A stretch of 45,179 bases of DNA from a virus (UHGV-1374413), one strand, 5' to 3'. Shown: positions 1-45,179, counted from the stretch's first letter. Made by a program: numbers and translations. Notes: generated from the sequence alone by a model not told the origin.

Positions 1-1016
1 CTTTTATGATTATCGGTTAATGATTCAAGAAGTTCATCGTTTCCAATTTTTTTGCTCGCATGATGTAATTGAGCTTTTTTCATTGATAATTCTTCAATTA
101 ATTCTTTTTGACCTTCTTTTATAAATTTCAAAAAATTATCGATGAAGTAATTTAATTCTCCTTTATTCATCACACTATTTGTTTTATCGAAAATATCGTA
201 GTAAGTTTTCTTATTATTGTCTATTGCTCGCGATAGAGAAATAGCTGTAAGGTTATCATATTCTTTGTCTAAATATAGGCTATTAATAAAACGGGAAGTT
301 CTTCCGTTCCCGTCATAAAAAGGATGGATATAGCCCATATAATAATGTGATATAGCAATTTTAATTACCAATGCTATGTTGTTAGGAGTATTTAAAAAAT
401 TTAACAACTTTTGCAAATGATTAATTATTTTTTCATGAGGATTTACACCTTCATGTATAATTTTATTAGTTGATGTAACCACCTTCACAGTGTCTTTACG
501 GAATAATTCCCCATCAAGTTTATCACTTGTATTAACTTCTTCTTCAGCAATCATGTTGTATATTTTCTTAATATCTTTAGGAGTTTTAGGTAATTCATTC
601 TGTTCGTATAAAATACCTAAGTACGAATTTAACATACTTTTAAACCTTACTACCTTTTTAGGGTTTTCTTTTATTTCTTTCATACTATTAACAATTTCTT
701 GCTTACTACTTTTAACCCCTTCGATTTGGTTAGTAGAAAAAAGTTCATTTACAATAATGTCCTTGTGCAAAGATTCTGTAGCTGCTTCTGGTAAATTTAT
801 AGTATGCTCGATTAATTTTGAATTATTCTTTTCTATATCATTAACCAAGTTTAAAATTTTCGATGTAGGTATATAGTATAAATTAAACTTATCATTTGTT
901 TTATAGGGTCTAATTGTTAAATCTAATAATTCAACATTAGGTGCAGTTATTCTTTTATCATATTCTTTTTCGTACTTTTGTGGATCTTTATAAAAAACCT
1001 TATACATATATTCCAT
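1..1016 (-). CDS. Fic-family (FIDO, putative AMPylating) protein; start at 1016, 3' end beyond the left edge of the window
   Basis: The minus-strand translation contains the Fic motif HPFYDGNGRTSR. RBS GGTGGTGAG lies upstream of the ATG at 1016. Positions 1..~770 are the exact reverse complement of ~44410..45179. Confidence 0.85.
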   Translation of the reverse strand, partial: MEYMYKVFYKDPQKYEKEYDKRITAPNVELLDLTIRPYKTNDKFNLYYIPTSKILNLVNDIEKNNSKLIEHTINLPEAATESLHKDIIVNELFSTNQIEGVKSSKQEIVNSMKEIKENPKKVVRFKSMLNSYLGILYEQNELPKTPKDIKKIYNMIAEEEVNTSDKLDGELFRKDTVKVVTSTNKIIHEGVNPHEKIINHLQKLLNFLNTPNNIALVIKIAISHYYMGYIHPFYDGNGRTSRFINSLYLDKEYDNLTAISLSRAIDNNKKTYYDIFDKTNSVMNKGELNYFIDNFLKFIKEGQKELIEELSMKKAQLHHASKKIGNDELLESLTDNHK

Positions 1017-1167
1017 TTTCTCACCACCTAAGTTATACTTCTTATGGATTTTATCACTTAGGACAAAGAAAAACAACATAATTGTATAAAAAAAGAGGCA
1101 ACCGTCAGCAACAGTTACCTCAAGTACACTCCGCAGATATGTACCGCAATTTCTATTTGATTATAAC

Positions 1168-1204
1168 ATAAAAAAAGAGGGCAGTCGCTAGGACTACCCT
1201 AAAA
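1168..1204 (-). terminator. Rho-independent terminator downstream of the lysis genes
   Basis: Minus-strand hairpin AGGGUAGUC-CUAGC-GACUGCCCU followed by a U7 run, directly downstream of the endolysin stop (1245). Confidence 0.5.
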
Positions 1205-1244
1205 TGGAGATCTTTGTATAATGTCGTACTATTACCATAACATA

Positions 1245-2954
1245 TTAATACACTTTTGTAATTCTTAAACGCTCATGCCAAATATAACCATTGTTATTTT
1301 TAGAATAAACACGACACCAACCGTCCTTAATTTCAAAGACGTAAAATTGGCTATATCCTGCTTTGTAAATGTCGTTAGTAGTGTACCATTCCTTACCTCT
1401 AAATTTAACTAATGCTGCGCTATAATAATCGACACGCGCTCTAAATTTAGCTTTAGACGACTTTTTCATGTTTAATGGTGGAATACTATTCACTTTTATT
1501 CCTGTTGTATCTGCAAGAATATTACGTTGCGCTACTGCTTGTTTATCATCTTTTTTTGCAAAATTCTTACCACCTGCTGTTTTGTAGATATCTTTAACGA
1601 TTAAGCGTTCATACCATACATAACCGTCATTGCTAGGACTGTAAACTCTAGCCCAACCATTACGAATTTCATAAATGTAGAACACGTCGCCCGGATCGTA
1701 TTCTTCACTCGTAACAACCATTACGTTATTATGGTTAGGTCTACAAATTCTAACGCCCTCGCTATCTGCAACCGCTTTGAAGTATGGTTGATTACTCCAT
1801 GTTAAGTTTAGCGGTGGCTTTTTCTCTAACTTGATTGAACTTTTAGATTTACGTTGAGGTTTTTGTACTTCTTTAATATCAGTTAAATCAACGCTATCGT
1901 CTGCGAAGTCTGGCACAATGAAATGTGTTAAGCCTGTGTAATCATCTTCACGTAATTTAGCTGGCGAATTGGCTTTACTATCGAAGTTTTGTTCTAAGAT
2001 TGTAAATGATTTTGTACCGCCGCTATTGTCCCAAACTAAACCAGTATGTCCCCACTTTTTGTAAATTCCTGACGTATAAATTGGAATTGCACAAATAGGC
2101 GGCACGTAATCTCTTGTATTTTTAACCACTTTCCAACCTTTCGGCATGGCGTTTTTAGTGTGTAACTCTTTAGCGTTACCAATGAAACGTACGCCGCCTG
2201 TTACATGATAGATGAAGTCTACAACGACATCTACACATTGATAAGCCCACTCTTTATCAAAGTCGATATATTGTCCTTTCAAGCTGTGCATGTATTCGAT
2301 TGCTTGTTTATACTTAACCACACTTTGTGGCGAAGGTGTCGGCTTTTTAGTTGTTTTTGTTGATAGTTTCTTGCTCGGTGCTGGTTTAACGCCATTAATA
2401 TATTTAGCGATTTGCTTATCTAAATTCTTAACGTTTCTCGAATATCCACAAGCCTCTAATAAGTTTCCGGGATCAATCTTATCAGCTTGAATATCTTGGT
2501 GTCCCGGCACTTCGGTTTTATAATCAATTCCCCAATAGTTACATAAATACGCTAATACACGCGCCATATTATCCAATGACTTACGCGAACGTTGAATGTT
2601 ACCGGGGAAATAACTACCCTCTACACCAAACGCAACGTCGTTAGCATCAGCATTATACCACTGATTGTCAGTAGGCGTGTTATATAATACATGCCATGCT
2701 TTCTCTGTTACTGGAATACATACAATACACTCTTTATCATCAACAAATATATGAGCGCTAGCAACAATTGACCAATCAATCATATAAGTATTTTTATAAT
2801 AATTCACATTCGTTTGAGCCGATGTGTGAGGGTTTCCAGTGTCATGTGCTACTGCAAATAAAGGTTTCTTACTTGTTAAAGGTTGCCCGCTTCTACGTGT
2901 TCCAATCGGTAAAAAATCATATTTAACTGGTACGCCATTCCATTTTTCTGCCAT
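1245..2954 (-). CDS. Endolysin: N-terminal N-acetylmuramoyl-L-alanine amidase (Amidase_2/PGRP), central CHAP peptidase, two C-terminal SH3b (SH3_5) repeats
   Basis: 569 aa. Amidase_2-like N-terminus. CHAP Cys/His motifs AYQCVD ... WGHTGLVW. Two repeats (YIYEIRNGWARVYS...YVWYERL and YVFEIKDGWCRVYS...YIWHERL) typical of staphylococcal SH3b wall-binding domains. Last gene before the prophage end. Confidence 0.85.
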   Translation of the reverse strand: MAEKWNGVPVKYDFLPIGTRRSGQPLTSKKPLFAVAHDTGNPHTSAQTNVNYYKNTYMIDWSIVASAHIFVDDKECIVCIPVTEKAWHVLYNTPTDNQWYNADANDVAFGVEGSYFPGNIQRSRKSLDNMARVLAYLCNYWGIDYKTEVPGHQDIQADKIDPGNLLEACGYSRNVKNLDKQIAKYINGVKPAPSKKLSTKTTKKPTPSPQSVVKYKQAIEYMHSLKGQYIDFDKEWAYQCVDVVVDFIYHVTGGVRFIGNAKELHTKNAMPKGWKVVKNTRDYVPPICAIPIYTSGIYKKWGHTGLVWDNSGGTKSFTILEQNFDSKANSPAKLREDDYTGLTHFIVPDFADDSVDLTDIKEVQKPQRKSKSSIKLEKKPPLNLTWSNQPYFKAVADSEGVRICRPNHNNVMVVTSEEYDPGDVFYIYEIRNGWARVYSPSNDGYVWYERLIVKDIYKTAGGKNFAKKDDKQAVAQRNILADTTGIKVNSIPPLNMKKSSKAKFRARVDYYSAALVKFRGKEWYTTNDIYKAGYSQFYVFEIKDGWCRVYSKNNNGYIWHERLRITKVY

Positions 2955-3262
2955 TATGCACGACCTCCACCAATTTTATTATTTTTATCTTTAGTTGAAC
3001 CTGTACGTGGTCGAACTGTTTCCCAGATACCAGTAGCCATTAGTCCACTAATCAAACCAGCAAGCAATCGACCTCCGATTGATAATTCGGTAACAATTTC
3101 AGGAATAAAAGCTGTAATACCACCTAAAACAACACCAATACCAATAGCAATTAAAGGCACAATGTTTTTAGGTACGCCAGCTTGCTTAACTAATTGTGTT
3201 AATGCGATTGTGATAACTGAAATTACTGTTGCAAATGCAATAATACTTTCCATTTCTTCCAC
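2954..3262 (-). CDS. Holin (small protein with 3 predicted TM helices)
   Basis: 102 aa, three hydrophobic segments, charged C-terminal tail. Stop overlaps the endolysin start (ATGA). Confidence 0.75.
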   Translation of the reverse strand: MEEMESIIAFATVISVITIALTQLVKQAGVPKNIVPLIAIGIGVVLGGITAFIPEIVTELSIGGRLLAGLISGLMATGIWETVRPRTGSTKDKNNKIGGGRA

Positions 3263-3803: not shown

Positions 3804-5150
3804 CTATAATGATATTGTTCCTTCGATATAATAAGGTTCATTAGCATCTACTGTACTATTAGGTTCAAATGTTATTTTTAGTTCTCCAGAAGTAATCATA
3901 GTTATATTATATATAGCTGATGTATTCATATATGGATTTATTTTCACTTTTGAATACTCTGCATAACTGCTTATTTTTTGTGAAATATTTGTTGGTAACT
4001 TTGCAAACTCCATTGTTCTTGAAGTAATATTCTTTACTGATCCTTTAATAAATAACAAATTAGTATCATTTATAGTAACAAGTCTATATTTTGGTTGGTT
4101 TGCGGTCCCAGCTTGTGTCGTTCCGTTAATTAATGAAAGTGGTTGCCACCCAGTGTCAATATAGTCGTTACTCAAGTTTTCCCATTCTATCCAACCAATT
4201 GATTCTGAATAAGTTTTAATATATAAATCGTTACGATTATACGAAGAATAATATATTTTCCTACCATTTCCTTCGTTCTTTTGTATAAAAACATATCCAG
4301 TAGCTCCACTAGGAGAATCTTGAGCTTTTAGGTTAAAATAAAATCCCGATTTTGCAGATAAAAGATTATCATTAGTCATTGGATTACCATCATAAAAATT
4401 AGTTATTTGATTACCACTATCATTAGTTAATTTATGTTTTTGCCAATTTGTAAAATCGGGTAAAGTAGGTGTTTCTCCTGGTGGACCTGGAGGTCCTTGT
4501 TCGCCTTGTAGACCTTTTTCTCCAGTATCGCCTTTAGGCCCCATAGGACCTGTTGGACCTGCTGGACCCATTTCACCATCTATTCCGTTTGCTCCTTGTT
4601 CGCCTTTTGGCCCTTGTGGACCAGTATCACCTTTATCGCCTTTTGGCCCTCTAAAACGTTCAATGTCTTTTAACATAATTCGTTCAACGATATCATCTAA
4701 CATATCAACATGAACTTCTTTACCGATTGCTTTTGTGATACCACTATCGTTTACTTTGAAATAGAAATCTGCCACATGTGAACTATCATCAGTCAAATTG
4801 CTACTATCAATTAAGAATAATTTTGCTTGTACACGTCCTACGTGCTTTGTTACATAGTCAGATACGTTGTAACGCACATGACCTTCTTCTGCTTTCACTA
4901 CTTCTAATTCCTCATTAGTAAAAATAGAGCCATCTTCAGCAATTAGATGCAATACTGGTTTGAATGTCGTTTGATTTAAATTTACTGGAATAAATTCTTT
5001 TTCTTCGCTAAAGATATTACGCTTTTTAATATGAATATCTAATACAGAAGTAGAGTTATCCATTGTGTAAAGATTGACATTGATATTACCTAAGTCAATA
5101 CCTCGCTCATCTATACGAGCAATTACTTTACCTTGCTTGAACGTTTCCAT
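3804..5150 (-). CDS. Tail fiber protein with a collagen-like Gly-X-Y triple-helix region
   Basis: 448 aa. About 60 residues of uninterrupted G-X-Y repeats ([59 protein letters not shown]). Position within the tail/baseplate module. Confidence 0.8.
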
Positions 5151-5202: not shown

Positions 5203-6966
5203 CTATGTTTGTTTGTATCGGTCACGTATAAAGTGTTCACCTTTTAGACCGATTTTTTCATATAAACTTTTAATTGTATTCGCTTGATGTTGCGCCCAAC
5301 GTACATCAGTAGCGTATTGGTGTGTACCAGGATGTTGAGGGTTCCAACGCATTCTATATAATGTTTGTTGTCCTTGATCGATATATCCTCTTCTAACAAA
5401 CTTAGCACCACCGATGATAGCTTTAGAAGGAGTAGTCCAACCTTGATTTCTAGCAAATGTCATAGCGTAGTTAGGGTTGCTGTCATAAGCAGCAATACCG
5501 AAGTAGTTATAAACGCCGTAACTTCCGCTAGCGAAAGCGGAACGACCATATCCACTTTCTAAGAATGCATGTGCAATTAAGTAGATTTCGTTCACGTTAT
5601 ATTTCTTACAAGCTGAAGCGAAAGCTTTACCTTGTCCGTACAGAGTACCTTTACCTTTGAGTATTTTATTTAACTTGCTTACTGATATGCCTTGATATTT
5701 ACCTAAGTTAAGCATTTGATATTTCTGAGTTGAACTGTTCCAAATCTCTAAACTGTTCATCGCTTTTAATGTAGCCGTTCGACTAGCATTGTACCAACCT
5801 GTACCGTAGTTGATTTGTGGCCATTTTGTCATTTGAATATCAACCGCTCGTTTAAATGAGTAATTACTGTAAACAACCATAACTTTAGGCTTACTAGATA
5901 CTTTTTTTCTTGACGACGATGATGAAGATGAAGATGAGTTTTCTTTCTTCTTAACTTTAATTTTAACTTTAGTTGTTTTACCATTTCTCACTTCTTTGAG
6001 TATCTTGTTTTTATCTTTGTATAACCCAAGTAGTGCTTTTTCAACCCTGTCAAGAACCTTAGAAGAAGGCTTACCGTCGATTAGAGGGTCAAAGTTACCA
6101 TGTTCCATAACGGTACGCCATAAGTCGTCAGTAACCTTCACTGATGATTGTTTAATTGGAATTTTATACCTTTGTAGTTGCCCAACGCCAAATATGATTG
6201 CGTGTAGTTCGTTAAGTAAGAAATCTGTTTTGGTATCGCTGTAATCTCCACACACTTCAATCACAATATGGTCAGGTTCACTAGGCACTTTGATATCTGT
6301 ATATCGTGGTTGCCAGATGTGATGACGGTCAATGTAGAAGTGTGGATATTCATCGTTAGAAATGTATTTGTTTCTGTCATAATACATCTGTTGTACAGAA
6401 CACATTGTTCCGGCATTCTTGACTGATATACCTTTAGGCTTACGAGTTCTTAATTCTCCATGAGCAATTCTGTGGGGGATGAATGTAGGAAAATCAACAT
6501 TCTCATCATCTTCTGCGGTTACTGTAATAATCTTTCGTTTTTTAAGTGGTTCTTTTTTAGTTTTCGGTTTCGGTCTGTCTGAAGAATCGCCTTTGTCATT
6601 AGATGGTGTTGAAGTTTTTGGTTCTTCTTTATAAGGTGGTCGAACGAAGTAGAGACTACCACCCATACCGTTATAATTATGATTAACATACGCAGCTTTG
6701 CTACCGTAATAACTGTTGGCATTGTACCAATTTTGGTCAATACATTTAAAGTTACTTTTATCGCTAGGACCAATAACTATTGCAGTATGACCTGCCGAAC
6801 CATAAGTCCAAACTGCTATATCACCCGGCTTAGGAACGAAATTAGAAGCATTTGCATATATCTTCCAATCACGGCTGGGGTACTGACTACGACGTGCCAT
6901 CGCATTCGCATTACCCCACGTTCTAAATCCCCAATATCTGTCAAAGATATAGTTAGGTAAATCCCA
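5203..6966 (-). CDS. Virion-associated peptidoglycan hydrolase, exon 2 (rest of CHAP domain + C-terminal glucosaminidase domain)
   Basis: The frame opens WDLPNYIFDRYWGF...GHTAIVIG (CHAP His region). The C-terminus has an endo-beta-N-acetylglucosaminidase-like region (YLIAHAFLESGYG...YNYFGIAAYD). Poly-Ser linker. Architecture matches phi11-type tail-associated muralytic enzymes. Confidence 0.8.
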   Translation of the reverse strand, partial: WDLPNYIFDRYWGFRTWGNANAMARRSQYPSRDWKIYANASNFVPKPGDIAVWTYGSAGHTAIVIGPSDKSNFKCIDQNWYNANSYYGSKAAYVNHNYNGMGGSLYFVRPPYKEEPKTSTPSNDKGDSSDRPKPKTKKEPLKKRKIITVTAEDDENVDFPTFIPHRIAHGELRTRKPKGISVKNAGTMCSVQQMYYDRNKYISNDEYPHFYIDRHHIWQPRYTDIKVPSEPDHIVIEVCGDYSDTKTDFLLNELHAIIFGVGQLQRYKIPIKQSSVKVTDDLWRTVMEHGNFDPLIDGKPSSKVLDRVEKALLGLYKDKNKILKEVRNGKTTKVKIKVKKKENSSSSSSSSSRKKVSSKPKVMVVYSNYSFKRAVDIQMTKWPQINYGTGWYNASRTATLKAMNSLEIWNSSTQKYQMLNLGKYQGISVSKLNKILKGKGTLYGQGKAFASACKKYNVNEIYLIAHAFLESGYGRSAFASGSYGVYNYFGIAAYDSNPNYAMTFARNQGWTTPSKAIIGGAKFVRRGYIDQGQQTLYRMRWNPQHPGTHQYATDVRWAQHQANTIKSLYEKIGLKGEHFIRDRYKQT

Positions 6967-7211
6967 CAATTTTGTTGCGATAACAGGCGCTACTTGTTAC
7001 CTTCTTCATATTTCTATGAACGTTCAGACTATATCATCAACCTATTAGGTTGCTCCCCGTTTCCACTCGCTTGAGTGTACGTCTTTCGACTAGTCGTTGC
7101 ACGTTCCTATTTCTAGGCTTCGCTCATGATTGCCCTCGTCTTATGCATTAGGGTTTCCCATGAATTAGAGGAGTTTGCTATAACGATTACTCGTTAAAGG
7201 TGCTAGATTTA
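6967..7211 (-). other. Group I self-splicing intron (245 nt, no internal ORF) interrupting the tail hydrolase gene inside the CHAP active-site motif
   Basis: Exon 1 ends ...GMYGYQC (last nt U), exon 2 begins WDLPNYIF, and the intron ends in G. The intron carries R-like (GUGCAACGACUAGUCG) and S-like (GAUAUAGUCUGAAC) elements able to form P7 (GACUA/UAGUC). Removing it restores an in-frame CHAP domain. Confidence 0.75.
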
Positions 7212-13510: not shown

Positions 13511-16500
13511 TTAGAATGAAAATACCGTATCATCATTTGCAGTTTGACCATTCACAATCGTTGCTAATGCTTCGTTGTTAACGTCCATTTCAATACGAAC
13601 AACACGTTGTGAAGGGTTTGTTTGAATAGTATGTGTATGTTGGACTTGAGCGTTCATATTAGCGTTTACTTTCTTCATGTTGGCAGTTATGTCTGGAATG
13701 GCTAAATTACTATTAAACGCGTCTGTAATACTATTAGCCATGCTACCCATACCACCGATAACATTTTTACCTTCTTTATTAATTCCGATGCCTAAACCTT
13801 CCATAGTCCATACACCGTATTGTTTAAATAATTTAGAAGGTGAACCAATGTGTAAAGCGCTTTTAGCAGCATTCACTGCACCCATTACTACATTTTTTGC
13901 AACAGATGCAACTTGTCCTGCCATTGCTTTAATACCGTTAATAAGTCCCATGATTAAATCACGACCAACAGAAACCATATGACCGATAAAACTACGTGCA
14001 GCACTTACTGCATTTGATACACCTGACGTTACTGAACTAACCACATTAGACATTCCTGAAATGACAGAATTTACAATTCCGGACATCGCCGAGCCAACTG
14101 CGCTAAGCATGTTAGAAAAACCACTCGATACAAAGCTAACTGCTCTTGATACCGCGTTAGTAATAAAACTAACGATTGATGACCAAATGCTTGAAATCAA
14201 GCTAGAAATGGCACTCATGATTGATGAAGTGACACTCATTAGCGACGACCAACCACTTGATACGAACGAAATGATGCTTGATACAATCGAAGTGATAATA
14301 TTAACAATAGCTGACCAAATAGCGCTTATGAATGCAGAAATTGCAGACATGATTGCGCTTGTTACTGATAAAAGTAAACTCCAACCAGCTTGAACGAAAC
14401 TTACTATACTTTGAACCACTGTTGTAATCACAGTAACTAACGTAGTCCAAATTGTTTGAGCAACTGTAACAAGCAACGTCCAGAAAGTTTGAGCTACTGT
14501 AACAATGGTTTGCCATATAGTTGATAAGAACACACCTAATGTTTGGACTACCGTAACGATTGTAGTAACAATCATTTGCCAAATTGTGGAAGCCACTGTG
14601 ACTAAAGTCGTCCAAATCGTTTGAGCGGTAGTGACAATAGAAGTCCATAAATTCATTAGGAATACACCTAATTGAACGACCACTGTTAATACTGCGCTAA
14701 CGATTGCTTGCCAAATTTGACTAGCCAAACTGATTAATGGTTCAAATATTTGAGAAAAGCCATTCACAATATTTTGCCATGTTTGTTGTAAATAATCTCC
14801 TAGGATTTGCCAAATATTTTTAGCCATATCTACAATGGCTTGCCAAATATCTGCGCCGACTTTTGATATAGTTTCCCATGCACCAGACCAATCACCAGAT
14901 AAGATTTGAAGTAACGCAGTAATTGTGCCAAGAATAACTTCCATTGCTATTTTAACTACCGCTTTAATTATTTCCCATGCCACTTTAATGACGCTAACTA
15001 TCGTATTAAACGCTTGAGATACGATAGGTGTTAGTAATTTAACTGCTGTTTCAACAACTTTTACTATAATATCCCATGTGTTTTTAAATAAAGGAACTAA
15101 TGGCGCTAAGATTGATTGCGCTTCATTCCATAAGTCTTGTAAGAAACCGATAACCGCATGAATAGCATCTCCAACTGCACTAGAAATCGCATTCCATGCG
15201 TCTGTAACTGCATTTCGCAATACAGAAGAAGATTTCCACAATGCAACAAATACAGCGATTACTGCTACTACTGCTGCTATTACTATGCCTACCGGACCAG
15301 ATAACGCTGCAAGTACGCCACCTAAAAATTCTATAGCGCCCATGACAACGCTAATTATTCCACTTAAACCACCGAATGTAGTAATAAGAGGGATAATTAC
15401 TTGAGTTACAAAAATGAACGCTGGTGCTAATGCCATTAATATTCCAGCTAACGTTGCTACGATTCCTACAATCATACCAATAATCGGACTAGCTTCTGTT
15501 AGTTTCCCTATAAACTTGGTAATAGCTAACGCTACATCTAAAACTACTGATGCTAATGGAGCCATAGCTACACCGACATTAATAAGAATATTGATGATAT
15601 TACCTAATAATTGGATAAGTTTAGGTCCGTTCTCTTGAACGTATTCAATGAACTTTTTAAATCCGTCACTCTCTGCAATCGTTGCACTCCATTGTTCAAA
15701 TTGCTTAGCCATATCTGCTAAACCTTGTAATACTAAATGAGTGTTAGGAGCAAATGCTTTCATTAAGTTGAATATACCTCTAAATGTTGAACCGAATATC
15801 TGACCTATCAATGGCAAATTCTGTTTAGTATATTCAATGAATGACTTAATCGCATTTTGTCCTTCAACTGACTGCGCCCACTCATTAAATGCTTGTCCCA
15901 TTTTCTTAAAGCCTTGCGATACCCATTCGGCTAATGGAGCAATTTGTGTAAGTACACTAACTAAACCACTACCAAATGAGCCGGCAGCATCTAACATATT
16001 GTTAAATATTCTTACGCCAGTTGTACCCATCATCTCGAAGAACTTCTGTGCTACTTGTGAGTTTTTAGCCCAATTAAGCATTTTAGCACTTGCTTGTTCC
16101 ATTCCTTTAGATACACCGTTGATAAATGGTGTAAGTCCAGCTAACGCAACTTTAGCAGTATCAATCGCATTTGCTAATGTATTAAAGATTTGTGCTTGAT
16201 TTTGTTTAATAAGGTCTGCCCATGCACCTTTTAAACTTTCTAATGAAGCCTCGTAACGTTCAGTTTCTCTAGTTGCTTCTAATGTACCGTCTGATAACAT
16301 TTTTAAAGCACTGATGCCCATAGCACCAAATGCTACTGCACCTGCGCCAGCTACACCAAATGCACCAGCTACACCTAGCGCACCACCGGCAACTACGCCT
16401 AATGCATTCAATACCGCCATTAGTGCCGGTACTACACTTGCGATTGCTGGAACGAGTAACGAAATGTTAGAAAGTAACGAACCTTTAATCATGTTCCCAA

Positions 16501-17287
16501 ACACTGTTCCAAATGATCTAATATCATTTGCTAAGCTATCTAATGAATTACTGTAATCTTCTAAACCTTTGTGTAGTTGTTTAAAGAAAGCCATTGCTGA
16601 ATTTCCATCTACATCAAGCCGAGTACGATGTCGGTTAGGGATAGAACGTAGCATAGCTTTAAACGCTTTTATGTGAGCAATAGCACCTGCGCTATCAACT
16701 TCAAGATTAGCTTTAGCTTTTTGATGAGCGAAGTCATTTAGCTGTTTCTTAGCCATTTTAATATGTTCTCTTGCTCTAGTTGCATCTGCATCTAATGTTG
16801 CTGAATACTTGCTACCGTCGATACTATCTAGGTTATGTTGCAATTCAGAAATATGCGTAATAGCTTTTCTAATGTTTACATCAGCGTCTGCTTCTGCATT
16901 TGAATTATCATACATATCTAAATAATTCTGTATTTTCTTAATATTTGCAGTAGCTTTAGATACATCGGCATCTAACTCTGCATCACCACGATAAGCATCG
17001 AATTTTTCAACCAACGACTTAGCCTGTGCGACTTTTTCTCTAACATCAGAAATATCTGCGTCAAGTTCTGCATCTGCATGAGTATTATCAAAGCCTTTTA
17101 CGGCATCTCTTGCTGCTTTGACTGCTTTCATTACGCCTGATGAGTCGCCATCTAATTTAGTATCTTTGATTGATTCCTGTGTTTTCTTAAAGTTTTGAGC
17201 CACTTTCTTAGCTGATTGGATAGCACTTTTAAATTTACGTGTGTTCGCCTCAATCTGCGCTTTAATACTATAATTTGCTTCTGCCAC
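13511..17287 (-). CDS. Tail tape measure protein
   Basis: 1258 aa, largest gene. Coiled-coil N-terminus, hydrophobic Gly/Ala-rich central region, and tandem ~11-aa repeats (TIWTTLVTVAQ, QTFWTLLVTVA). Positioned after the G/GT chaperones. Confidence 0.9.
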   Translation of the reverse strand: MAEANYSIKAQIEANTRKFKSAIQSAKKVAQNFKKTQESIKDTKLDGDSSGVMKAVKAARDAVKGFDNTHADAELDADISDVREKVAQAKSLVEKFDAYRGDAELDADVSKATANIKKIQNYLDMYDNSNAEADADVNIRKAITHISELQHNLDSIDGSKYSATLDADATRAREHIKMAKKQLNDFAHQKAKANLEVDSAGAIAHIKAFKAMLRSIPNRHRTRLDVDGNSAMAFFKQLHKGLEDYSNSLDSLANDIRSFGTVFGNMIKGSLLSNISLLVPAIASVVPALMAVLNALGVVAGGALGVAGAFGVAGAGAVAFGAMGISALKMLSDGTLEATRETERYEASLESLKGAWADLIKQNQAQIFNTLANAIDTAKVALAGLTPFINGVSKGMEQASAKMLNWAKNSQVAQKFFEMMGTTGVRIFNNMLDAAGSFGSGLVSVLTQIAPLAEWVSQGFKKMGQAFNEWAQSVEGQNAIKSFIEYTKQNLPLIGQIFGSTFRGIFNLMKAFAPNTHLVLQGLADMAKQFEQWSATIAESDGFKKFIEYVQENGPKLIQLLGNIINILINVGVAMAPLASVVLDVALAITKFIGKLTEASPIIGMIVGIVATLAGILMALAPAFIFVTQVIIPLITTFGGLSGIISVVMGAIEFLGGVLAALSGPVGIVIAAVVAVIAVFVALWKSSSVLRNAVTDAWNAISSAVGDAIHAVIGFLQDLWNEAQSILAPLVPLFKNTWDIIVKVVETAVKLLTPIVSQAFNTIVSVIKVAWEIIKAVVKIAMEVILGTITALLQILSGDWSGAWETISKVGADIWQAIVDMAKNIWQILGDYLQQTWQNIVNGFSQIFEPLISLASQIWQAIVSAVLTVVVQLGVFLMNLWTSIVTTAQTIWTTLVTVASTIWQMIVTTIVTVVQTLGVFLSTIWQTIVTVAQTFWTLLVTVAQTIWTTLVTVITTVVQSIVSFVQAGWSLLLSVTSAIMSAISAFISAIWSAIVNIITSIVSSIISFVSSGWSSLMSVTSSIMSAISSLISSIWSSIVSFITNAVSRAVSFVSSGFSNMLSAVGSAMSGIVNSVISGMSNVVSSVTSGVSNAVSAARSFIGHMVSVGRDLIMGLINGIKAMAGQVASVAKNVVMGAVNAAKSALHIGSPSKLFKQYGVWTMEGLGIGINKEGKNVIGGMGSMANSITDAFNSNLAIPDITANMKKVNANMNAQVQHTHTIQTNPSQRVVRIEMDVNNEALATIVNGQTANDDTVFSF

Positions 17288-26112: not shown

Positions 26113-26548
26113 CGTTTATAAAAGTTGGAGTAATTACTTCTGCCTCAACTTTGTCGGTCCACATGCGATAACGTTTGCCTAATAATTCTGCTGCTTTCGT
26201 TCTAGCGTTAGTATCAGAACGTTTTTCTAGTTCTTCTACTTCCATTTCACCACGACCTACTTGAATTGGTATAAGTTCTTGGTCTGTAATTTCACCACGA
26301 ATGACGGAAGTAAGATATCGAAGTATTTCATCTTGGTCTGCAATCGCTTCTTTTTTAAGTTCTTCCATTCGCTTATCAATTGCTGATTTTATTCCGACAT
26401 TTTCCAACAATTTATGACTTCTAGCTTTAGCGTACTTTTCGCTATATCCAGCCTTAATTGCCGATTGATAAGCATTTCCACTTTTAATATATTCATCTAC
26501 AAACGTTTGTTGTTTAACATTTAATTCGTTCATCTCATATATCACCAA
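26093..26548 (-). CDS. terS: Terminase small subunit
   Basis: 151 aa, HTH-containing N-terminus (QTFVDEYIKSGNAYQSAIKAGYSE). The track start is GTG; an ATG 4 codons in (MNELN) is an alternative. Confidence 0.8.
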   Translation of the reverse strand: MVIYEMNELNVKQQTFVDEYIKSGNAYQSAIKAGYSEKYAKARSHKLLENVGIKSAIDKRMEELKKEAIADQDEILRYLTSVIRGEITDQELIPIQVGRGEMEVEELEKRSDTNARTKAAELLGKRYRMWTDKVEAEVITPTFINDVPAND

Positions 26549-27852: not shown

Positions 27853-28120
27853 ACTTACCTCCTAATCTATGATAGTTATGCCCACAATGATTACATCTCA
27901 TATATTCGATTGGACTGTTATAATCTTTGGCCATTAGGTTTCCGCCTAGCATTTTGCAATTAGGACATTCACTTAATCCTGTGATTTTCTTATGTTTCTC
28001 TTTCGCTTCTTCCTTACTCTCTGCCTCCACAATAAAGAGAGTTTCATTTGTGCGTGCTTTCTCAATATCAGTGTGAATATGACCTGTGCTATCTGTGAAT
28101 TCTCTGATTAGGAATTGCAT
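27842..28120 (-). CDS. Zinc-ribbon hypothetical protein
   Basis: 92 aa, CPNC...CNHC motif. Confidence 0.55.
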   Translation of the reverse strand: MQFLIREFTDSTGHIHTDIEKARTNETLFIVEAESKEEAKEKHKKITGLSECPNCKMLGGNLMAKDYNSPIEYMRCNHCGHNYHRLGGKYDV

Positions 28121-28483: not shown

Positions 28484-28544
28484 TCCCATCACTCCTTTAA
28501 TCTACATCTTGTGCTATCTGTAAATTCTCTGATTAGGAATTGTG

Positions 28545-33193: not shown

Positions 33194-33392
33194 CGCTTTG
33201 CCTCCACTTTGTTTCATCTAATATTTTTGATTTAACATTATCGAAGTCATCAAAAAATGTTATTTCTTCGCTTTTTAATAATCTGTCTACTGCCCAACCC
33301 ATTTCTAAAATGCTTTTTTGAATGATTGGGTCATCTTTGTAATCGTTACGGTACAAGTCGCCTAACAACGTTTGTAATTCTGCAATAATCAT
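33168..33392 (-). CDS. Hypothetical protein
   Basis: 74 aa ORF directly downstream of the helicase gene. Confidence 0.45.
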   Translation of the reverse strand: MIIAELQTLLGDLYRNDYKDDPIIQKSILEMGWAVDRLLKSEEITFFDDFDNVKSKILDETKWRQSDGTYRKST

Positions 33393-34639
33393 TAGTAAAA
33401 CCTCTGCGTCTTTTTATAAAATTCGAGTTCAACGACACCCGTCTCGCCGTCTTTGTTTTTAGCGACGTTTAACTCAATATCTGATTTGCCAGTTTCATCA
33501 TCTGCAAGTTCACGATTATAGTAATCATCTCGGTAAAGCATGAATATCATGTTTGCATCTTGCTCAATGCCTCCAGCCTCTCTCAAGTCAGACATCATAG
33601 GGCGTTTGTCTTGCCTACTTTCAACACCCCTGCTTAATTGTGATAGTGCGATAATTAGGCAACCTGTTTCTTTTGCGATAATTTTTAAATCACGACTGAT
33701 TTTTTCAACTTCTAAGCGTCTATCTTTTTGTGGTAAGTCAGTTTTCATTAACTGCAAATAGTCGATACATATAATTTGTGGTTTATCGCTATCTCGCATT
33801 GCAATTTCTCTAACATCTTGTGGTGTGATTTGAGCGTGATCTTCAATTCTAAAGTTGCTATGTTGTTTAATGTCGTTGATTGCTGACATTATTCTTTCAA
33901 CTTCATCATCATTTAGCCCATCTGACTTTTTAATCTTATAAAGTGGCACACCAGATATCGCAGACGTTAGACGTTCAACAATGTTGTTACCTCCAGTTTC
34001 TAAACTGAAGAAGGTAGTCGGATACCCCTGTTGTGTCAGGTTCCAAATCATATTTAATGCTAGGGCAGTTTTGCCTGTACTAGGTCGCCCTGCAAGCACG
34101 TTTAATTGTCCTTCTTCAAAGCCATGTATCTTTTCATCTAACTTATTAAAGTTCGTCGTTATAAACGTCTTAGGCGTATCTGATAAGATGTTTTCCATAA
34201 CAGTTGTTAGAAATTGGTCTGTCGGGTTATCTTTCTCAATGTTTAACTCACTTAACCCTTTTAATTGGTCGATTAGATAAGTAAAATTCTCTTTTGTTGG
34301 TACTGATTGAAACTCGCTAACTTCGACCCTAGCCTTATTCAAAATGTAGTTGTTTAAGATATTTAGTTGATCCTGCATAAAAAACACTTTGTCTGTACCT
34401 TTAGAGTTATACAATTGGGTTAATACCTTAGTTGGTATAAATTCAGCATCTTCTCTGCTTTTGTAGTAAATCTCGTTTACATCTACTTTGCCTTGTTCAA
34501 GTACATACTCGATAAATTTTTGCGCAGTAACATCTGTAAACATTACAGGTTTGAGTTTTAACTTACTTAACAATTTAGGGTAGTTCATCAGATTTGAAAC
34601 AATAGAGTGTTCGGTTGATAAAACATCAATATTCTTCAT
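33392..34639 (-). CDS. Replicative DNA helicase (DnaB family)
   Basis: 415 aa. Walker A GRPSTGKTALALNMIWN, Walker B IICIDYLQLM, RecA-like C-terminal domain. Confidence 0.85.
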   Translation of the reverse strand: MKNIDVLSTEHSIVSNLMNYPKLLSKLKLKPVMFTDVTAQKFIEYVLEQGKVDVNEIYYKSREDAEFIPTKVLTQLYNSKGTDKVFFMQDQLNILNNYILNKARVEVSEFQSVPTKENFTYLIDQLKGLSELNIEKDNPTDQFLTTVMENILSDTPKTFITTNFNKLDEKIHGFEEGQLNVLAGRPSTGKTALALNMIWNLTQQGYPTTFFSLETGGNNIVERLTSAISGVPLYKIKKSDGLNDDEVERIMSAINDIKQHSNFRIEDHAQITPQDVREIAMRDSDKPQIICIDYLQLMKTDLPQKDRRLEVEKISRDLKIIAKETGCLIIALSQLSRGVESRQDKRPMMSDLREAGGIEQDANMIFMLYRDDYYNRELADDETGKSDIELNVAKNKDGETGVVELEFYKKTQRFY

Positions 34640-34994: not shown

Positions 34995-35789
34995 TCACTC
35001 CTCGTTCAATATGTCGTCTAGTAAAGTTCCTTTTACTTGTTGTTTAGGTTTTACTTTGTTTTGAGCATCTTCTTTAGTTTTCACATTTTCTTTAGCCCAA
35101 TTATTTAAAACTTGAATTAAATAACCAACATGACACCCTTTTTCTTTCGTGTAATCAGTAGCAATTTCGATAACCTCATCAGCATGTTCCCCTATATCGT
35201 CGACTGCATATCCTATCTGTTCCATTTGATAAGGGGTTAAGTTATTATCTAAAAATGTGATTACATAATTAATTGCTTTTGAGAAGACGTCGTTACTTCT
35301 ATCTTCTCTATTCTTATTCTTATATTCTTCTTCTCTTTCTTCTTCTTCTTCTGTATCGTTACGTAACGTTACGGTAACGTTATTTCCTATTTGGTTTTGT
35401 TTTTGTCGTTCTCTATATCGTTGTTGTCGAAGTCTATTCTTTTCGTTATGCTTACTTTTACTATCTAAACTTTGATGTTTCTCCCAATTTTTAACTTTGT
35501 ATGCACCTCTGACTTCTTCTACCATTCCTAATTCTTCAAAAGTTCTCATTGCTAATCTGATTGAATTAATAGGTCGATTGAATTCATTAGCTAACATTTC
35601 ATCGTTGTAAGGTAAGTTTTCTGATAGCATGATGTAACCTTGTTCATTGTATTTACCAGCAAGAGTTAGCAACTTAACCCAAACGGTTATGATTGTGTCA
35701 CGCTCTGGTAATGCCTCTATATATTTAATTTTGCTATCATCAAACATTCCGACTTTTAATTTTATCCATGATACTTCAGCCAATATCAC
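34995..35789 (-). CDS. Replisome organizer / replication initiation protein (phage Rep N-terminal + DnaD-like C-terminal domains), with internal origin iterons
   Basis: 264 aa. Central acidic EEEEEREEE linker. The DNA inside the gene carries a polypyrimidine tract and GTTACGTAAC-type repeats. Confidence 0.7.
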   Translation of the reverse strand: MILAEVSWIKLKVGMFDDSKIKYIEALPERDTIITVWVKLLTLAGKYNEQGYIMLSENLPYNDEMLANEFNRPINSIRLAMRTFEELGMVEEVRGAYKVKNWEKHQSLDSKSKHNEKNRLRQQRYRERQKQNQIGNNVTVTLRNDTEEEEEREEEYKNKNREDRSNDVFSKAINYVITFLDNNLTPYQMEQIGYAVDDIGEHADEVIEIATDYTKEKGCHVGYLIQVLNNWAKENVKTKEDAQNKVKPKQQVKGTLLDDILNEE

Positions 35790-39561: not shown

Positions 39562-40480
39562 CGATTACATCTCCTTTTGATATTTGTTTGTTCAGTTTTT
39601 GAGATAAATCTAATAAATCATCTGCAATTTTCTTGATAGGTTTAATTGCATATTCGTTACTTAAAATGTATTCATCATGAATGAAGTAAGTCATAGGTGC
39701 GATTTCTTTTATTAGTTCCTCACCTTTTTTAACAAGGTCGTACACTTCTTTTTGGGCCTTTAATCTACGTTGTCCGTCATCTAACTTTCTATTCATATCG
39801 CCTAACGCTTTATTTAATTCATCATATTTCTGCGACTTCTCACTCACTTCATCTCTGCGTTGTTCCATTTCTTTGATGTCTTTTTCTAACTTCTGATTAC
39901 GTTGTTCAATCAGTTTTTGTTGGTGTCTTGATTGAGCGAGCGCATTTTTAGTTTCTTGATAGTCCTCAGGCTCCATATACTTCTCGATAACTTCAGGTTC
40001 TCTACTCTCTGCATCTTCTAGTTGTTTCTTCGCAATCTCTTCTGAACGTTGTGCTTGTTCTACTTGAGATTGGAGTTTGGCATTTTGTTCGTCGCGTTGT
40101 TTGAGTTGTTTCTTTAACTCTCGTAATTCTCGAACAGTCATCTCGTCTGGAGTTTTTGTTTCTCCGTTTGATGTTGTATGTTCTTTGGTACGTTCTGGTT
40201 CGGGGAGAGTCGCGATTTGATAAAGAGCTTCAACACCTAAAGTGTTCGACATCGAACGCTTTTGAAATTCGTCAGATACTTTTATAAATTTTCTAGCTTG
40301 TGAGTCATTAAAGTTTACTGACTTCAACCATTTTGACCATTCTCCATGTACTAAGTCATTTTCTTTCACGTGTTTCAATCTACGACCAATCTCGAAAATA
40401 GATTGACCAGCGATGTTTTGATAACTTTTTATTTCAGTTTCAATTGTGATTAGGTCATTACTCAGTTGTAATTCGTTCAT
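39554..40480 (-). CDS. Putative anti-repressor-like early protein (N-terminal conserved domain + long coiled coil)
   Basis: 308 aa. First gene after cro in the early operon. RBS AGGAGGG. An operator-like site lies immediately upstream. Confidence 0.45.
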   Translation of the reverse strand: MNELQLSNDLITIETEIKSYQNIAGQSIFEIGRRLKHVKENDLVHGEWSKWLKSVNFNDSQARKFIKVSDEFQKRSMSNTLGVEALYQIATLPEPERTKEHTTSNGETKTPDEMTVRELRELKKQLKQRDEQNAKLQSQVEQAQRSEEIAKKQLEDAESREPEVIEKYMEPEDYQETKNALAQSRHQQKLIEQRNQKLEKDIKEMEQRRDEVSEKSQKYDELNKALGDMNRKLDDGQRRLKAQKEVYDLVKKGEELIKEIAPMTYFIHDEYILSNEYAIKPIKKIADDLLDLSQKLNKQISKGDVIDV

Positions 40481-40494
40481 TCCAACCCTCCTGT

Positions 40495-40509
40495 ATCACA
40501 TTTTGTGAT
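40495..40509. promoter_or_regulatory. Operator-like inverted repeat ATCAC-N5-GTGAT (third copy, downstream of cro)
   Basis: ATCACATTTTGTGAT. Confidence 0.45.
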
Positions 40510-40510
40510 A

Positions 40511-40750
40511 TTAATAATTAAAAAAAATATCTTCGACACTAACATCGAAAGTTTTAGCTAAGATTTCCATTTCATAATCGTTGAAAGGATATTTACCTTG
40601 TTCTTTCTGCTCATACTGCCTACGTTGTAAACCTATCAAATTAGCTACATACTCTGTGGTAAACTCTTCAGATAATCTAAGTTTACGCAATTTAGTTTTA
40701 GGTTTTAAATATTTTTCTTTAAGCATTTTCTTTTTATCTGTCGCCGTCAT
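40511..40750 (-). CDS. cro: Cro-like HTH (XRE-family) regulator
   Basis: 79 aa, HTH TEYVANLIGLQRRQYEQKEQGK. Divergent from the repressor gene. Confidence 0.75.
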   Translation of the reverse strand: MTATDKKKMLKEKYLKPKTKLRKLRLSEEFTTEYVANLIGLQRRQYEQKEQGKYPFNDYEMEILAKTFDVSVEDIFFNY

Positions 40751-40784: not shown

Positions 40785-40832
40785 ATCACGTTTCGTGATA
40801 CATTTCAAACATTTTTTATCACATTTTGTAAT
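40785..40832. promoter_or_regulatory. Divergent cI/cro promoter-operator region with two ATCAC-N5-GTGAT-type sites
   Basis: ATCACGTTTCGTGAT (40785..40799) and ATCACATTTTGTAAT (40818..40832). Confidence 0.55.
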
Positions 40833-40890
40833 ATTTTTTATTGTTTCCTTATTATAGATGTGTTATATTTATCTCAAGGAGTGATACCAA

Positions 40891-41511
40891 ATGAGCAAAA
40901 ATGTGATAGGAAAAAGAATAAAAGAACTAAGAAAACAGAAAAAACTAACTCAAAATGATCTAAGTAAGTTGACTGGATACAAACAAAATACTATTTCATC
41001 TCATGAAAATGGGACTCGAGGAATAGACGAGATAGATATAATGAACTATTGTGAGGCTCTCGGTGTGACTCCGACAGATTTATTTCAAAAACATGAACAA
41101 CCTCAACTAGAAACCCTACCAGTCAAAAAGATTCCAGTTGTTTCAAAAGTATCTGCTGGCTTACCTATATATAGTGAAGAAAATTTGATTGATTACATAT
41201 ACTTTGCTACTAACAAACTTAATTCTGATAAAGAAGAATTTGGTTTAAAAGTTTCTGGCGATAGTATGGATAAGATTTTCCAAGATGGCGATATCGTTGT
41301 GGTAGAAAAAGACTCTGTTGTTGAAAACGGTCAATTAGGTGTCGTTATGATTAATGGTTATAACGCTACCGTTAAACGTATTAGATACAATGGCGACCAA
41401 ATTATATTAATTCCAGAATCAAATAATCAAAACCATTACCCACAAGTGTATGGCAAAGACGATGAAGTAAAAATAATCGGTAGAGTTGTAGCAAGTCAAA
41501 AACTATTTTAA
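40891..41511 (+). CDS. cI-like repressor (N-terminal XRE HTH + C-terminal S24 LexA-like peptidase domain)
   Basis: 206 aa. HTH LTQNDLSKLTGYKQNTISSHENG. S24-like SGDSMDKIFQDGDIVVV...K catalytic context. Confidence 0.85.
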   Translation: MSKNVIGKRIKELRKQKKLTQNDLSKLTGYKQNTISSHENGTRGIDEIDIMNYCEALGVTPTDLFQKHEQPQLETLPVKKIPVVSKVSAGLPIYSEENLIDYIYFATNKLNSDKEEFGLKVSGDSMDKIFQDGDIVVVEKDSVVENGQLGVVMINGYNATVKRIRYNGDQIILIPESNNQNHYPQVYGKDDEVKIIGRVVASQKLF

Positions 41512-42126: not shown

Positions 42127-42149
42127 ATATAACAAAGGGGAAATGTAAA

Positions 42150-42788: not shown

Positions 42789-42790
42789 TA

Positions 42791-42830
42791 TTTTTAGGGT
42801 AGCCCGTCTACCCTTATTATTTTTTACCTT
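42791..42830 (+). terminator. Rho-independent terminator after the lipoprotein genes
   Basis: AGGGTAGCCCGTCTACCCT hairpin followed by TATTATTTTTT. Confidence 0.55.
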
Positions 42831-42847
42831 TTTTGAGGAGGGATAAC

Positions 42848-43873
42848 ATGCAAACACGATGTTATGACGGTAAAAAATGGCAATACGAGTTTAAATATGA
42901 GGGTAAGAGATATAGAAAGAAAGGCTTTAGAACGAAACGTGAGGCTAATTCTGCAGGATTAGATAAGTTAAATGAATTAAAACAAGGTATCGAGTACGAA
43001 CCAAATTTAACGTTATACGACTATTTCAAAACTTGGTGCGAAACGTTTAAAAAATCGACGGTAACACCTAAAACCTACAAGTCCTATTCTTCTGCTATGG
43101 AACACATCAATAACCACCCTATTGGTAAGAAAAAGTTAAAAGATATTACGAGATACCACTATCAAGATTTTATTAACGAGTTTTCAAAACATCATTCGAA
43201 AGAATCTATTAGAAAACTAAACGGTTATATTAGAACATCGTTAGATGATGCAGTATACGAAGGGCTTATAGTAAAGAACCCTACCTTTAAAGTTAGTTAT
43301 AGAGCTAGTAACCCAAACAAAAGTGAAGATAGTAAGTATATAAATCTAAAAGATTATGAAGTGTTAAAACAGCATTTGATGACTAAAGACAACGCATCAT
43401 CACTCGTACTATTCATCATGATTTGTACTGGTTGTCGCATAAGTGGTGCTTTGAATCTAAAACGTGAATATATTAACCAAGTTAAAAGCGAAATTTATAT
43501 TGATGAGCATAAAACAGATTCGTCACCACGTTACGTGTCCATTAGTCAAAAAGATATGAACCATATCATTAAGTCTATTAATCAATTACCTAGAACAATT
43601 GACGGAACTATATTTGGTGAACTAACAAACAATGCAGTTAACAAACGTTTAAAAATATATTGTAACAATTTAGGTATCAAAGAAATCACTTCACATGCTT
43701 TACGTCATACTCACTGTTCATATTTATTAGCTAAAGGTATTTCTATATATTACATTTCAAAAAGATTAGGGCATAAAAATATATCAGTAACCACAGAAGT
43801 ATATTCACATTTACTTGAAGAAACATATAAAGAAGAAGATGAAAAAGCAACACAAATAATAAGCGCAATGTGA
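42848..43873 (+). CDS. int: Tyrosine integrase
   Basis: C-terminal catalytic residues in HALRHTHCSYLLAKG...LGH...Y. RBS GAGGAGGG. The ORF-track TTG at 42833 is less likely than the ATG at 42848. Confidence 0.85.
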   Translation: MQTRCYDGKKWQYEFKYEGKRYRKKGFRTKREANSAGLDKLNELKQGIEYEPNLTLYDYFKTWCETFKKSTVTPKTYKSYSSAMEHINNHPIGKKKLKDITRYHYQDFINEFSKHHSKESIRKLNGYIRTSLDDAVYEGLIVKNPTFKVSYRASNPNKSEDSKYINLKDYEVLKQHLMTKDNASSLVLFIMICTGCRISGALNLKREYINQVKSEIYIDEHKTDSSPRYVSISQKDMNHIIKSINQLPRTIDGTIFGELTNNAVNKRLKIYCNNLGIKEITSHALRHTHCSYLLAKGISIYYISKRLGHKNISVTTEVYSHLLEETYKEEDEKATQIISAM

Positions 43874-43875
43874 TT

Positions 43876-44090
43876 TTTAGGGACCCATTAGGGACCCAAA
43901 CCCCCATGAAACCCGTCGTTATAAGGTTTATAGTATCCCTCCCAGGACGCTAATAACCGAAAATTAAACACTTTTCGAAATCAAGAATCCCATAGCGACG
44001 GGGTTCTTTTTATTTTGCCTATTAATAACACACCATATAAAACGAATTTTTAGGGACTTTTTAGGGACCCGAGTCCCTAAATAAAAAACC
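43876..44090. promoter_or_regulatory. attP-arm-like region with repeated TAGGGAC(CC) motifs and an int terminator
   Basis: Five copies of TTAGGGAC, including the palindrome TTTAGGGACCCGAGTCCCTAAA. A hairpin plus T-run lies at ~43986..44020. Confidence 0.4.
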
Positions 44091-44165
44091 ACGCTCATAA
44101 GAACGTGGTTAGTAGAATATAGTATCAATAAGATGTTATTGTTAGGTGTATTATAAAATAAAAAA

Positions 44166-44411
44166 TTAGAAATATCCTTCTATTGCTTTATAACGAACCG
44201 GTCTAATACCACTCTTATCAACATACTTTAATTCTATTAATTTATTCATCAATTTTCTGACTGTTTGCTCCGATACCTTTAAGTAAGCTGACAACTCTTG
44301 AACTGTTGTAGTTTCCTCCAATGAAAAATATTGGATTTGAGCCAGTATAAACATTATACTTTTATGATTATCGGTTAATGATTCAAGAAGTTCATCGTTT
44401 CCAATTTTTTT
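44166..44411 (-). pseudogene. Directly oriented 3' fragment of the Fic-family gene (last ~81 codons incl. C-terminal winged-helix region)
   Basis: 44358..44411 is identical to window 1..54. The minus-strand reading gives KKIGNDELLESLTDNHKSIMFILAQIQYFSLEETTTVQELSAYLKVSEQTVRKLMNKLIELKYVDKSGIRPVRYKAIEGYF*. Confidence 0.6.
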
Positions 44412-45179
44412 GCACAAGGACATTATTGTAAATGAACTTTTTTCTACTAACCAAATCGAAGGGGTTAAAAGTAGTAAGCAAGAAATTGTTAATAGTATGA
44501 AAGAAATAAAAGAAAACCCTAAAAAGGTAGTAAGGTTTAAAAGTATGTTAAATTCGTACTTAGGTATTTTATACGAACAGAATGAATTACCTAAAACTCC
44601 TAAAGATATTAAGAAAATATACAACATGATTGCTGAAGAAGAAGTTAATACAAGTGATAAACTTGATGGGGAATTATTCCGTAAAGACACTGTGAAGGTG
44701 GTTACATCAACTAATAAAATTATACATGAAGGTGTAAATCCTCATGAAAAAATAATTAATCATTTGCAAAAGTTGTTAAATTTTTTAAATACTCCTAACA
44801 ACATAGCATTGGTAATTAAAATTGCTATATCACATTATTATATGGGCTATATCCATCCTTTTTATGACGGGAACGGAAGAACTTCCCGTTTTATTAATAG
44901 CCTATATTTAGACAAAGAATATGATAACCTTACAGCTATTTCTCTATCGCGAGCAATAGACAATAATAAGAAAACTTACTACGATATTTTCGATAAAACA
45001 AATAGTGTGATGAATAAAGGAGAATTAAATTACTTCATCGATAATTTTTTGAAATTTATAAAAGAAGGTCAAAAAGAATTAATTGAAGAATTATCAATGA
45101 AAAAAGCTCAATTACATCATGCGAGCAAAAAAATTGGAAACGATGAACTTCTTGAATCATTAACCGATAATCATAAAAG
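44412..45179 (+). pseudogene. Inverted, 5'-truncated copy of the Fic-family gene (lacks the first ~83 codons); runs off the right edge
   Basis: Exact reverse complement of window 1..~770. Contains HPFYDGNGRTSR. No start codon or RBS at its 5' end. Confidence 0.7.

Follow-up and report, generated by a model that had tools for sequence, protein, structure and literature searches.

A perfect terminal inverted repeat in the contig of a Fic-carrying Staphylococcus haemolyticus phage: probable overshoot of a circular genome through a chimeric foldback

The viral sequence UHGV-1374413 (45,179 nt, analysed here in its entirety and referred to as the window) carries sequence of a Fic-domain gene at both of its ends in opposite orientations, and the question raised by this arrangement is whether two Fic loci bracket a phage or whether one locus has been assembled twice. 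The initial annotation described an integrated prophage bracketed by two inverted copies of Fic, attributed either to a chromosomal inversion/duplication or, as a fallback, to mis-assembly. The window is very probably one complete, circular genome of a temperate siphovirus of Staphylococcus haemolyticus, 44,358 bp in length (positions 1-44358) and with one intact Fic gene, which was extended by an overshoot via a chimeric foldback. This overshoot past 44358 amounts to 821 nt, consisting of a 55-base closure overlap and 766 bases read backwards. The 771-nt “terminal inverted repeat” results from a single locus being read a second time in reverse; it does not represent two loci and is not a real genomic feature.

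The arms of the inverted repeat, as defined by a repeat scan and direct comparison, occupy 1-771 and 44409-45179; they are 771 nt long, 100% complementary and exactly terminal, in agreement with the inverted repeat noticed at the outset. An exact direct repeat is present as well (1-55 = 44359-44413) and ends at the junction where the sequence turns back; its length is 55 nt, in place of the 54 bp assigned to it earlier. At the junction, the two partners share TTTGC and nothing more, exactly 5 nt as had been stated: 44409-44413 equals 51-55 as well as the reverse complement of 767-771, and the right-hand arm is composed of these five bases followed by the foldback segment (44414-45179). Base 55 of the + strand is joined to the opposite strand at 771, the junction being inverted and intramolecular with 711 nt skipped. 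Viewed from the opposite strand, a + strand 3′ end at 771 (...GCAAA) folds over, pairs with the TTTGC at 51-55 of that strand and is elongated, enclosing a loop of 711 nt, and this geometry is the standard form of a snap-back or template switch. Microhomology of at least 5 nt was obtained in only 0.64% of 200,000 random inverted junctions simulated from the window genome (P = 0.0064). Since overlaps of this length are rare by chance, the junction appears to have been primed by annealing and not formed by blunt joining, which supports the earlier suggestion of microhomology-mediated template switching as opposed to att chemistry.

Joining 44358 to 1 restores a single Fic open reading frame (ORF) of 402 aa on the minus strand (1016 -> 1, then 44358 -> 44166). 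More than 100 full-length homologues (399-409 aa) are collinear with this protein and align over 100% of its length, while the identical 402-aa Fic is encoded on 33 contigs and is also the Fic called in three of the assemblies compared below (L010, L011 and L012). The left-hand copy, formerly described as intact, runs off the left edge of the window at codon 339 of 402. The stretch 44166..44411, formerly described as a directly oriented copy of the Fic 3′ end, contains in 44166-44358 the only copy of codons 340-402 in the window. The right-hand copy is indeed truncated; it begins at residue L83 and is short of exactly 82 codons, against an estimate of ~83. What had been taken for two Fic copies bracketing the phage is one Fic, cut in two where the circular contig happens to be opened. 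In keeping with a circle written out as a linear de Bruijn contig, an exact direct repeat of length k links the two ends of the unique sequence, and both the genes and independent sequences are collinear across the 44358|1 join.

The independent sequences are informative at each of the relevant positions. The Logan contig SRR5273900_1324 (20,415 bp), which comprises loci L012 and L016, follows the circularised window along 42167 -> 44358 -> 1 -> 5954 at 100% identity, free of mismatches and gaps, and crosses the wrap point together with both breakpoints (55|56 and 766|767). SRR5273900 is the sole run on record with the window's exact TerL, and the contig bearing it there is also 100% identical; the one public run known to contain the exact phage, assembled with a different assembler, thus shows no foldback. 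No mention of the accession SRR5273900 was found in the literature. In a contig from a different run (L009), one high-scoring segment pair of 1446 bp extends over 1165 -> 1 -> 44358 -> 44081, and in L011 the lysin, an intact Fic and the integrase are collinear across the join (the lysin-Fic part being 100% identical and the attP-int side diverged, 98% overall). An integrated copy with a single intact Fic is available in S. haemolyticus (L010, a 352-kb contig of GCA_022486125.1), in the order lysin, Fic, attR/tRNA-Arg and host; along the circle, from 3287 via the intact Fic as far as 43935, its sequence matches the window at 100% identity, and the two part precisely at the att core. The foldback segment is absent from L009, L010, L011 and L012/L016, all of which read straight through 55|56 and 766|767, and the segment lies outside the true phage genome.

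The position of the contig ends was analysed with de Bruijn graphs built from the window's own sequence at k=55 and at other values of k (21, 33, 77 or more). The k=55 graph has two branch vertices only, V1 (1-55) and V2 (717-771); the window opens with V1 as its first 55-mer and closes with the reverse complement of V1 as its last. Among the values tested, k=55 alone places the contig ends on a vertex: with k=21 or 33 the vertices are internal, and with k of at least 77 V1 no longer fits the start. The window corresponds to the path E1 (1-771), E2 (717-44413), E3 (44359-44463, the chimeric edge) and the reverse complement of E1, and the lengths of these edges, with overlaps of 55 nt, sum exactly to that of the window (771 + 43697 + 105 + 771 - 165 (3x55) = 45179). 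The path halts where the sole continuation is an already-used edge. As both ends of the contig lie on one branch vertex, the symmetry of the window edges is a property of the graph walk and not of a repeat continuing in the chromosome; the expectation that the inverted repeat extends past both edges is accordingly not sustained.

With short reads, SPAdes and metaSPAdes end at k=55 by default. Because of the exact coordinate coincidence at this k, the window is interpreted as the probable whole contig of a SPAdes-type assembler. It resembles circular de Bruijn contigs (SPAdes/metaSPAdes, k=55) in that an exact 55-nt repeat closes a circle of 44,358 bp, a gene is split by the arbitrary opening and independent contigs cross the join. 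In contrast to such contigs, the overlap is not terminal, 766 nt more are added through the reversed chimeric branch, and a terminal inverted repeat is displayed in place of a terminal direct repeat. The structure is the sum of two well-known classes of artefact, the one being the k-mer overlap that circular contigs carry and the other a chimeric junction in inverted orientation, and the mis-assembly that had been offered as a fallback is borne out by the circle join, the read-through contigs and the k=55 geometry.

A putative course of events can be outlined from this geometry. The assembler would have opened the circle at a chance point inside Fic; after closure (44359-44413 = 1-55), the contig path would have gone on into a side branch made by chimeric foldback molecules, in which the + strand ending at 55 was joined via 5-nt complementarity to the opposite strand at 771. 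The path would then have re-traversed 766 nt of used sequence in reverse, up to the same graph vertex. As for the foldback molecules, a single-stranded 3′ end at 771 may have snapped back on 51-55 of its own strand and been extended, either during phi29 multiple displacement amplification (MDA) or by the end-repair polymerase acting on partly single-stranded fragments. An overlap of 5 nt is too short for an edge in any graph of k of at least 21, and therefore junction-bearing molecules would have to have been in the library. A chimera made in vitro is the most likely source of these molecules. This origin is favoured because one specific junction became abundant enough to be assembled, in the manner of early amplification chimeras, and because no other assembly of the window phage or its close relatives shows the junction.

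Chimeras with the required properties are documented for both routes. Among MDA chimeras, more than 85% show inversion together with an intervening deletion, most are intramolecular and more than 70% are primed on 2-21 nt, while amplification in vitro multiplies the chimeras that arise early (PMC1855051). Annealing of single-stranded DNA at short reverse-complementary sites, followed by T4 polymerase fill-in during end repair, constitutes another route (PMC8458033; PMC10908179). The junction of the window shares with MDA inverted chimeras (Lasken & Stockwell 2007, PMC1855051) and with end-repair snap-back (PMC8458033, PMC10908179) an inverted, intramolecular join between nearby sites, in which a segment of 711 nt is skipped, and a short complementarity above chance; its 5-nt priming lies within the published MDA range of 2-21 nt (PMC1855051). 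It differs from both in that the chimera is built into a finished contig, instead of being seen in single reads.

The most serious competitor is that the foldback is an in vivo product, i.e., that snap-back or head-to-head inverted (inverted-dimer) molecules formed a subpopulation of replicating or packaged phage DNA abundant enough to assemble; this is considered rather unlikely. Here, a resected or displaced 3′ end at 771 would have primed on 51-55 of its own strand in the course of replication or break repair, inside the Fic cargo gene, and the assembler would have merged the minority form with the normal circle, with Fic still being single-copy in the normal genome. Such an origin would equally supply the junction to the reads, as it must if a graph of k of at least 21 cannot build it from 5 nt. 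Further, the 5-nt microhomology is non-random and as typical of in vivo foldback priming as of priming in vitro, and the survival of the edge through assembler clean-up suggests more than a single read. However, the junction is absent from all independent assemblies of the same or near-same phage, including the 100%-identical SRR5273900 contig, and no structural feature favouring the site was found at 55 or 767 beyond the 5 nt. Moreover, any one junction formed in vivo would be expected to be very rare unless clonally amplified, whereas amplification in vitro multiplies early chimeras (PMC1855051).

Certain considerations weigh against an in vitro chimera carried into a whole k=55 contig. The chimeric edge survived and was preferred over simple closure, which suggests appreciable coverage of the junction, since assemblers normally prune rare chimeric edges. 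Coverage of this order is compatible with early MDA chimeras and also with a real subpopulation, and template switching in vitro is indistinguishable from that in vivo at the level of sequence. The junction analysis covers assembled sequences, and the view of the window as a whole contig assembled at k=55 is drawn from the exact coincidence of coordinates. In favour of the artefact, on the other hand, is a negative database search: the chimeric ORF that exists only at the junction (174, 153 or 85 aa from three alternative starts) has no record in an index of 153 billion genes. A foldback 45-mer and a normal-Fic 43-mer had no match in IMG/VR, and a shared 34-mer had none in GTDB genomes or JGI metagenomes; these collections thus contain neither the source contig nor exact relatives.

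Two other sources of inverted sequence were considered and rejected. A palindrome generated by long-read adapter or duplex read-through would be spacer-less, and leaves the exact 55-nt overlap unexplained. An invertase-type invertible segment was ruled out, as no second Fic segment is present in the independent assemblies.

The integration module bears on the view that the window is a prophage or rearranged chromosome with a long host Fic copy at each side, the two being inverted relative to each other and extending past the window. The attP of the window is intact and embedded in phage DNA, and no host DNA is present. The annotated att cores of phages IME1367_01 (attP-L) and IME1365_01 (attP-R) both map to 43935-43956, the flank on the integrase side matching IME1367_01 and that on the lysin side matching IME1365_01; furthermore, the attP region is collinear with the circular IME-SA4, in which integrase, attP and endolysin adjoin. 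With a single intact attP, no att direct repeat or attL-attR pair is to be expected in the window, and the reported lack of a direct att core repeat is confirmed: one core is present, with no flanking direct pair accompanied by host DNA, as an integrated prophage would display. The exact 341-aa integrase is found on 23+ contigs, where it adjoins attP or attL. It is common to otherwise different phages, for example those with an Eco47II-type restriction-modification pair adjoining int (L013, L015 and L017).

The host side of the site can be read from prophage junctions. In L010, the core at attR completes a tRNA-Arg(TCT) gene (L010 6363-6437), followed by PSM-beta genes, while in L014 the attL (~4088-4110) shows integrase, core and then host metallophosphoesterase/RdgB/MurI. 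Taken together, the attL and attR of these different strains indicate that attB is probably the 3′ end of tRNA-Arg(TCT), between the PSM-beta cluster and the metallophosphoesterase/RdgB/MurI block of S. haemolyticus; an unoccupied attB (tRNA 3′ end and host flank) was not found in GTDB genomes. The core is equal to the tRNA 3′ end, integration restores a complete tRNA at one of the prophage junctions (L010), and the mode of integration is the textbook insertion of a tyrosine integrase into the 3′ end of a tRNA gene. ARAGORN detected no tRNA in the window, as expected from an attP that holds only a 3′ fragment of the tRNA. The TTTTTAGGGAC(CC) tandem motifs on either side of the core are candidate arm-type binding sites of the integrase.

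A bracketed prophage or rearranged chromosome is consequently very improbable. The perfect 771-nt inverted repeat, symmetric at the window ends, is all that speaks for it, while the intact attP and the lack of host DNA in the window speak against it. Fic, rather than being an insertion site, is phage cargo: it lies inside the phage between the lysin and attP/attR in both the integrated and the circular forms, is intact inside the L010 prophage (by which Fic was ruled out as integration target), and the attB appears to be that of tRNA-Arg. The 352-kb L010 and the 100%-identical contig of the circular form each show a single intact Fic, in conflict with a chromosomal inversion or duplication. 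Such a rearrangement would also need a 5′-truncated Fic fused in inverted orientation into the Fic 3′ part, an arrangement seen in no other assembly, and leaves unexplained both the 55-nt direct repeat and its coincidence with a k=55 vertex.

Least credible of all is a truly linear phage genome, of the protein-primed or hairpin-telomere type, ending in inverted terminal repeats (ITRs) of 771 bp, for although viral pipelines flag terminal inverted repeats of at least 20 nt as “ITR, putatively complete” (PMC9610469; PMC12807716), the “ITR” here lies inside a coding sequence and truncates it, the genome possesses a tyrosine integrase, attP, TerS/TerL/SPP1-portal packaging and DnaB/DnaD-type replication and is not protein-primed (the PolB/protelomerase scan covered part of the ORFs), ITRs are lacking in its relatives, whose genomes are circularly permuted or integrate, and independent contigs read through both “ends”.

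The value of the circular genome with a foldback overshoot lies mainly in quality control for viral-genome pipelines. Identical inverted contig ends of ~20 nt or more earn the flag mentioned above (PMC9610469, PMC12807716), and the window would be accepted as an ITR genome of 45.2 kb in which Fic is duplicated and truncated, while it is actually a 44,358-bp circle with an 821-nt overshoot. Authors of gut-virome surveys have noted ITR contigs to be suspiciously common, and some viral operational taxonomic units to mix members with direct terminal repeats and members with ITRs (PMC9610469). A simple diagnostic can be suggested: direct recurrence of a contig's opening k bases immediately inside the distant arm of an inverted repeat indicates a circle with a foldback branch, and the contig is to be trimmed and treated as circular. 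The features discussed here and below are compiled in Table 1.

Table 1. Location of the repeats, integration elements and principal genes in the 45,179-nt window
Feature	Coordinates	Strand	Remarks
Left inverted-repeat arm	1..771		Within the segment with Fic codons 1-339
Fic codons 1-339	1..1016	-	ATG at 1016-1014; continues over circle join into 44358-44166
Endolysin (Amidase_2 + SH3b)	1245..2954	-	Neighbour of Fic on the circle
Holin	2954-3262	-	
Tail fibre, 448 aa (BppU_N + Collagen)	3804-5150	-	
Collagen-like Gly-X-Y coding repeats	4494-4659		Within tail fibre gene
Tail hydrolase	5203-6969	-	
Tape measure	13511-17287	-	
Major head	20391-21320	-	
Portal, SPP1-type	23301-24794	-	
TerL	24808-26112	-	
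TerS	26093-26548	-	
DnaB helicase	33392-34639	-	
DnaD-like loader	34995-35789	-	
cro-like	40511-40750	-	
cI-like (helix-turn-helix + S24)	40891-41511	+	
Remaining single-copy temperate siphovirus genome	772..44358	-	One complete module set
Tyrosine integrase, 341 aa	42848..43873	+	Pfam Phage_integrase and SAM-like domains
TTTTTAGGGAC(CC) repeats, candidate arm-type site	43873..43904	+	int side of core; direct-repeat family D8
attP core ATCCCTCCCAGGACGCTAATAA	43935..43956	+	Single copy; identical to 3′ end of host tRNA-Arg(TCT)
Second TTTTTAGGGAC set, candidate arm-type site	44046..44077	+	Fic side of core; D8
Intrinsic-terminator-like hairpin	44087..44110	-	Downstream of Fic
Fic codons 340-402 and stop (winged helix-turn-helix part)	44166..44358	-	Sole copy in window; contiguous with base 1 on the circle
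Closure overlap	44359..44413	.	Exact 55-nt repeat of 1-55; also branch vertex V1 of the k=55 graph
TTTGC microhomology	44409..44413	.	Foldback junction
Foldback segment	44414..45179	+	Reverse complement of 766-1; Fic codons 83-339 on + strand

Apart from its role in the assembly, the Fic gene can be assigned to a family. The protein carries the motif HPFYDGNGRTSR at aa 231, of the HxFx(D/E)GNGRxxR type, and an inhibitory-helix motif (TNQIEG) at aa 95, with a Pfam Fic domain and a C-terminal winged helix-turn-helix. The PADLOC SoFic model PDLC03963 matches it with E = 1.8e-42 over aa 49-388 (profile positions 20-340 of 361), so that a Fic fold motif is accompanied by a near-full-length profile match. 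The canonical motif, the N-terminal inhibitory-helix motif and the C-terminal winged helix-turn-helix are thus shared with SoFic, a family of single-gene Fic-domain anti-phage defence, from which the present gene differs in being the cargo of a temperate phage. On the strength of family membership, it may be a prophage-encoded defence or superinfection-exclusion gene, and a SoFic-like Fic in the lysin-attP cargo slot is perhaps of modest interest for prophage-encoded defence. The Fic cassette (44093-44358 and 1-1153) fills the slot between attP and endolysin, which in IME-SA4 and IME1365_01 is occupied by two small unrelated genes. The exact Fic and endolysin proteins are annotated in S. haemolyticus genomes. 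An 86%-identical Fic homologue is located in an island adjoining smpB in S. arlettae (L004).

The phage itself is an ordinary tRNA-Arg-integrating staphylococcal siphovirus of a known group. The window is 89-92% identical over most of its length to StB12, IME1318_01 and IME-SA4, which are phages of coagulase-negative staphylococci, and is collinear with StB12 and IME1318_01 at ~89% identity; a genome of 44,358 bp fits the size of relatives (41.8-45.2 kb). The similarity (~89-92% at the nucleotide level) covers most of the structural, lysis and integration modules, the order int, attP, (cargo) and endolysin is shared, and IME1367_01 and IME1365_01 have the same annotated att core. The difference from IME-SA4 and IME1365_01 resides in the cargo slot, with the Fic cassette in place of their two small genes.

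A few further observations concern the remaining genome. The L010 prophage, whose 100% identity to the window starts close to the holin and takes in lysin, Fic and att, changes abruptly at its position 2668 (= window 3287) to another tail-fibre module upstream, with a 1566-aa Peptidase_S74 protein, which forms a sharp mosaic boundary between otherwise identical phages. Two copies of a repeat containing the palindrome TATCACATTTTGTGATA (40478-40519 and 40801-40842) flank the cro-like gene, one of them lying between the divergent cro-like and cI-like genes, and these repeats are probably the operators of the lysogeny switch. Lastly, a 33-nt direct repeat (28085-28117 and 28510-28542; 97% identical, 425 nt apart) is situated amid small early genes.

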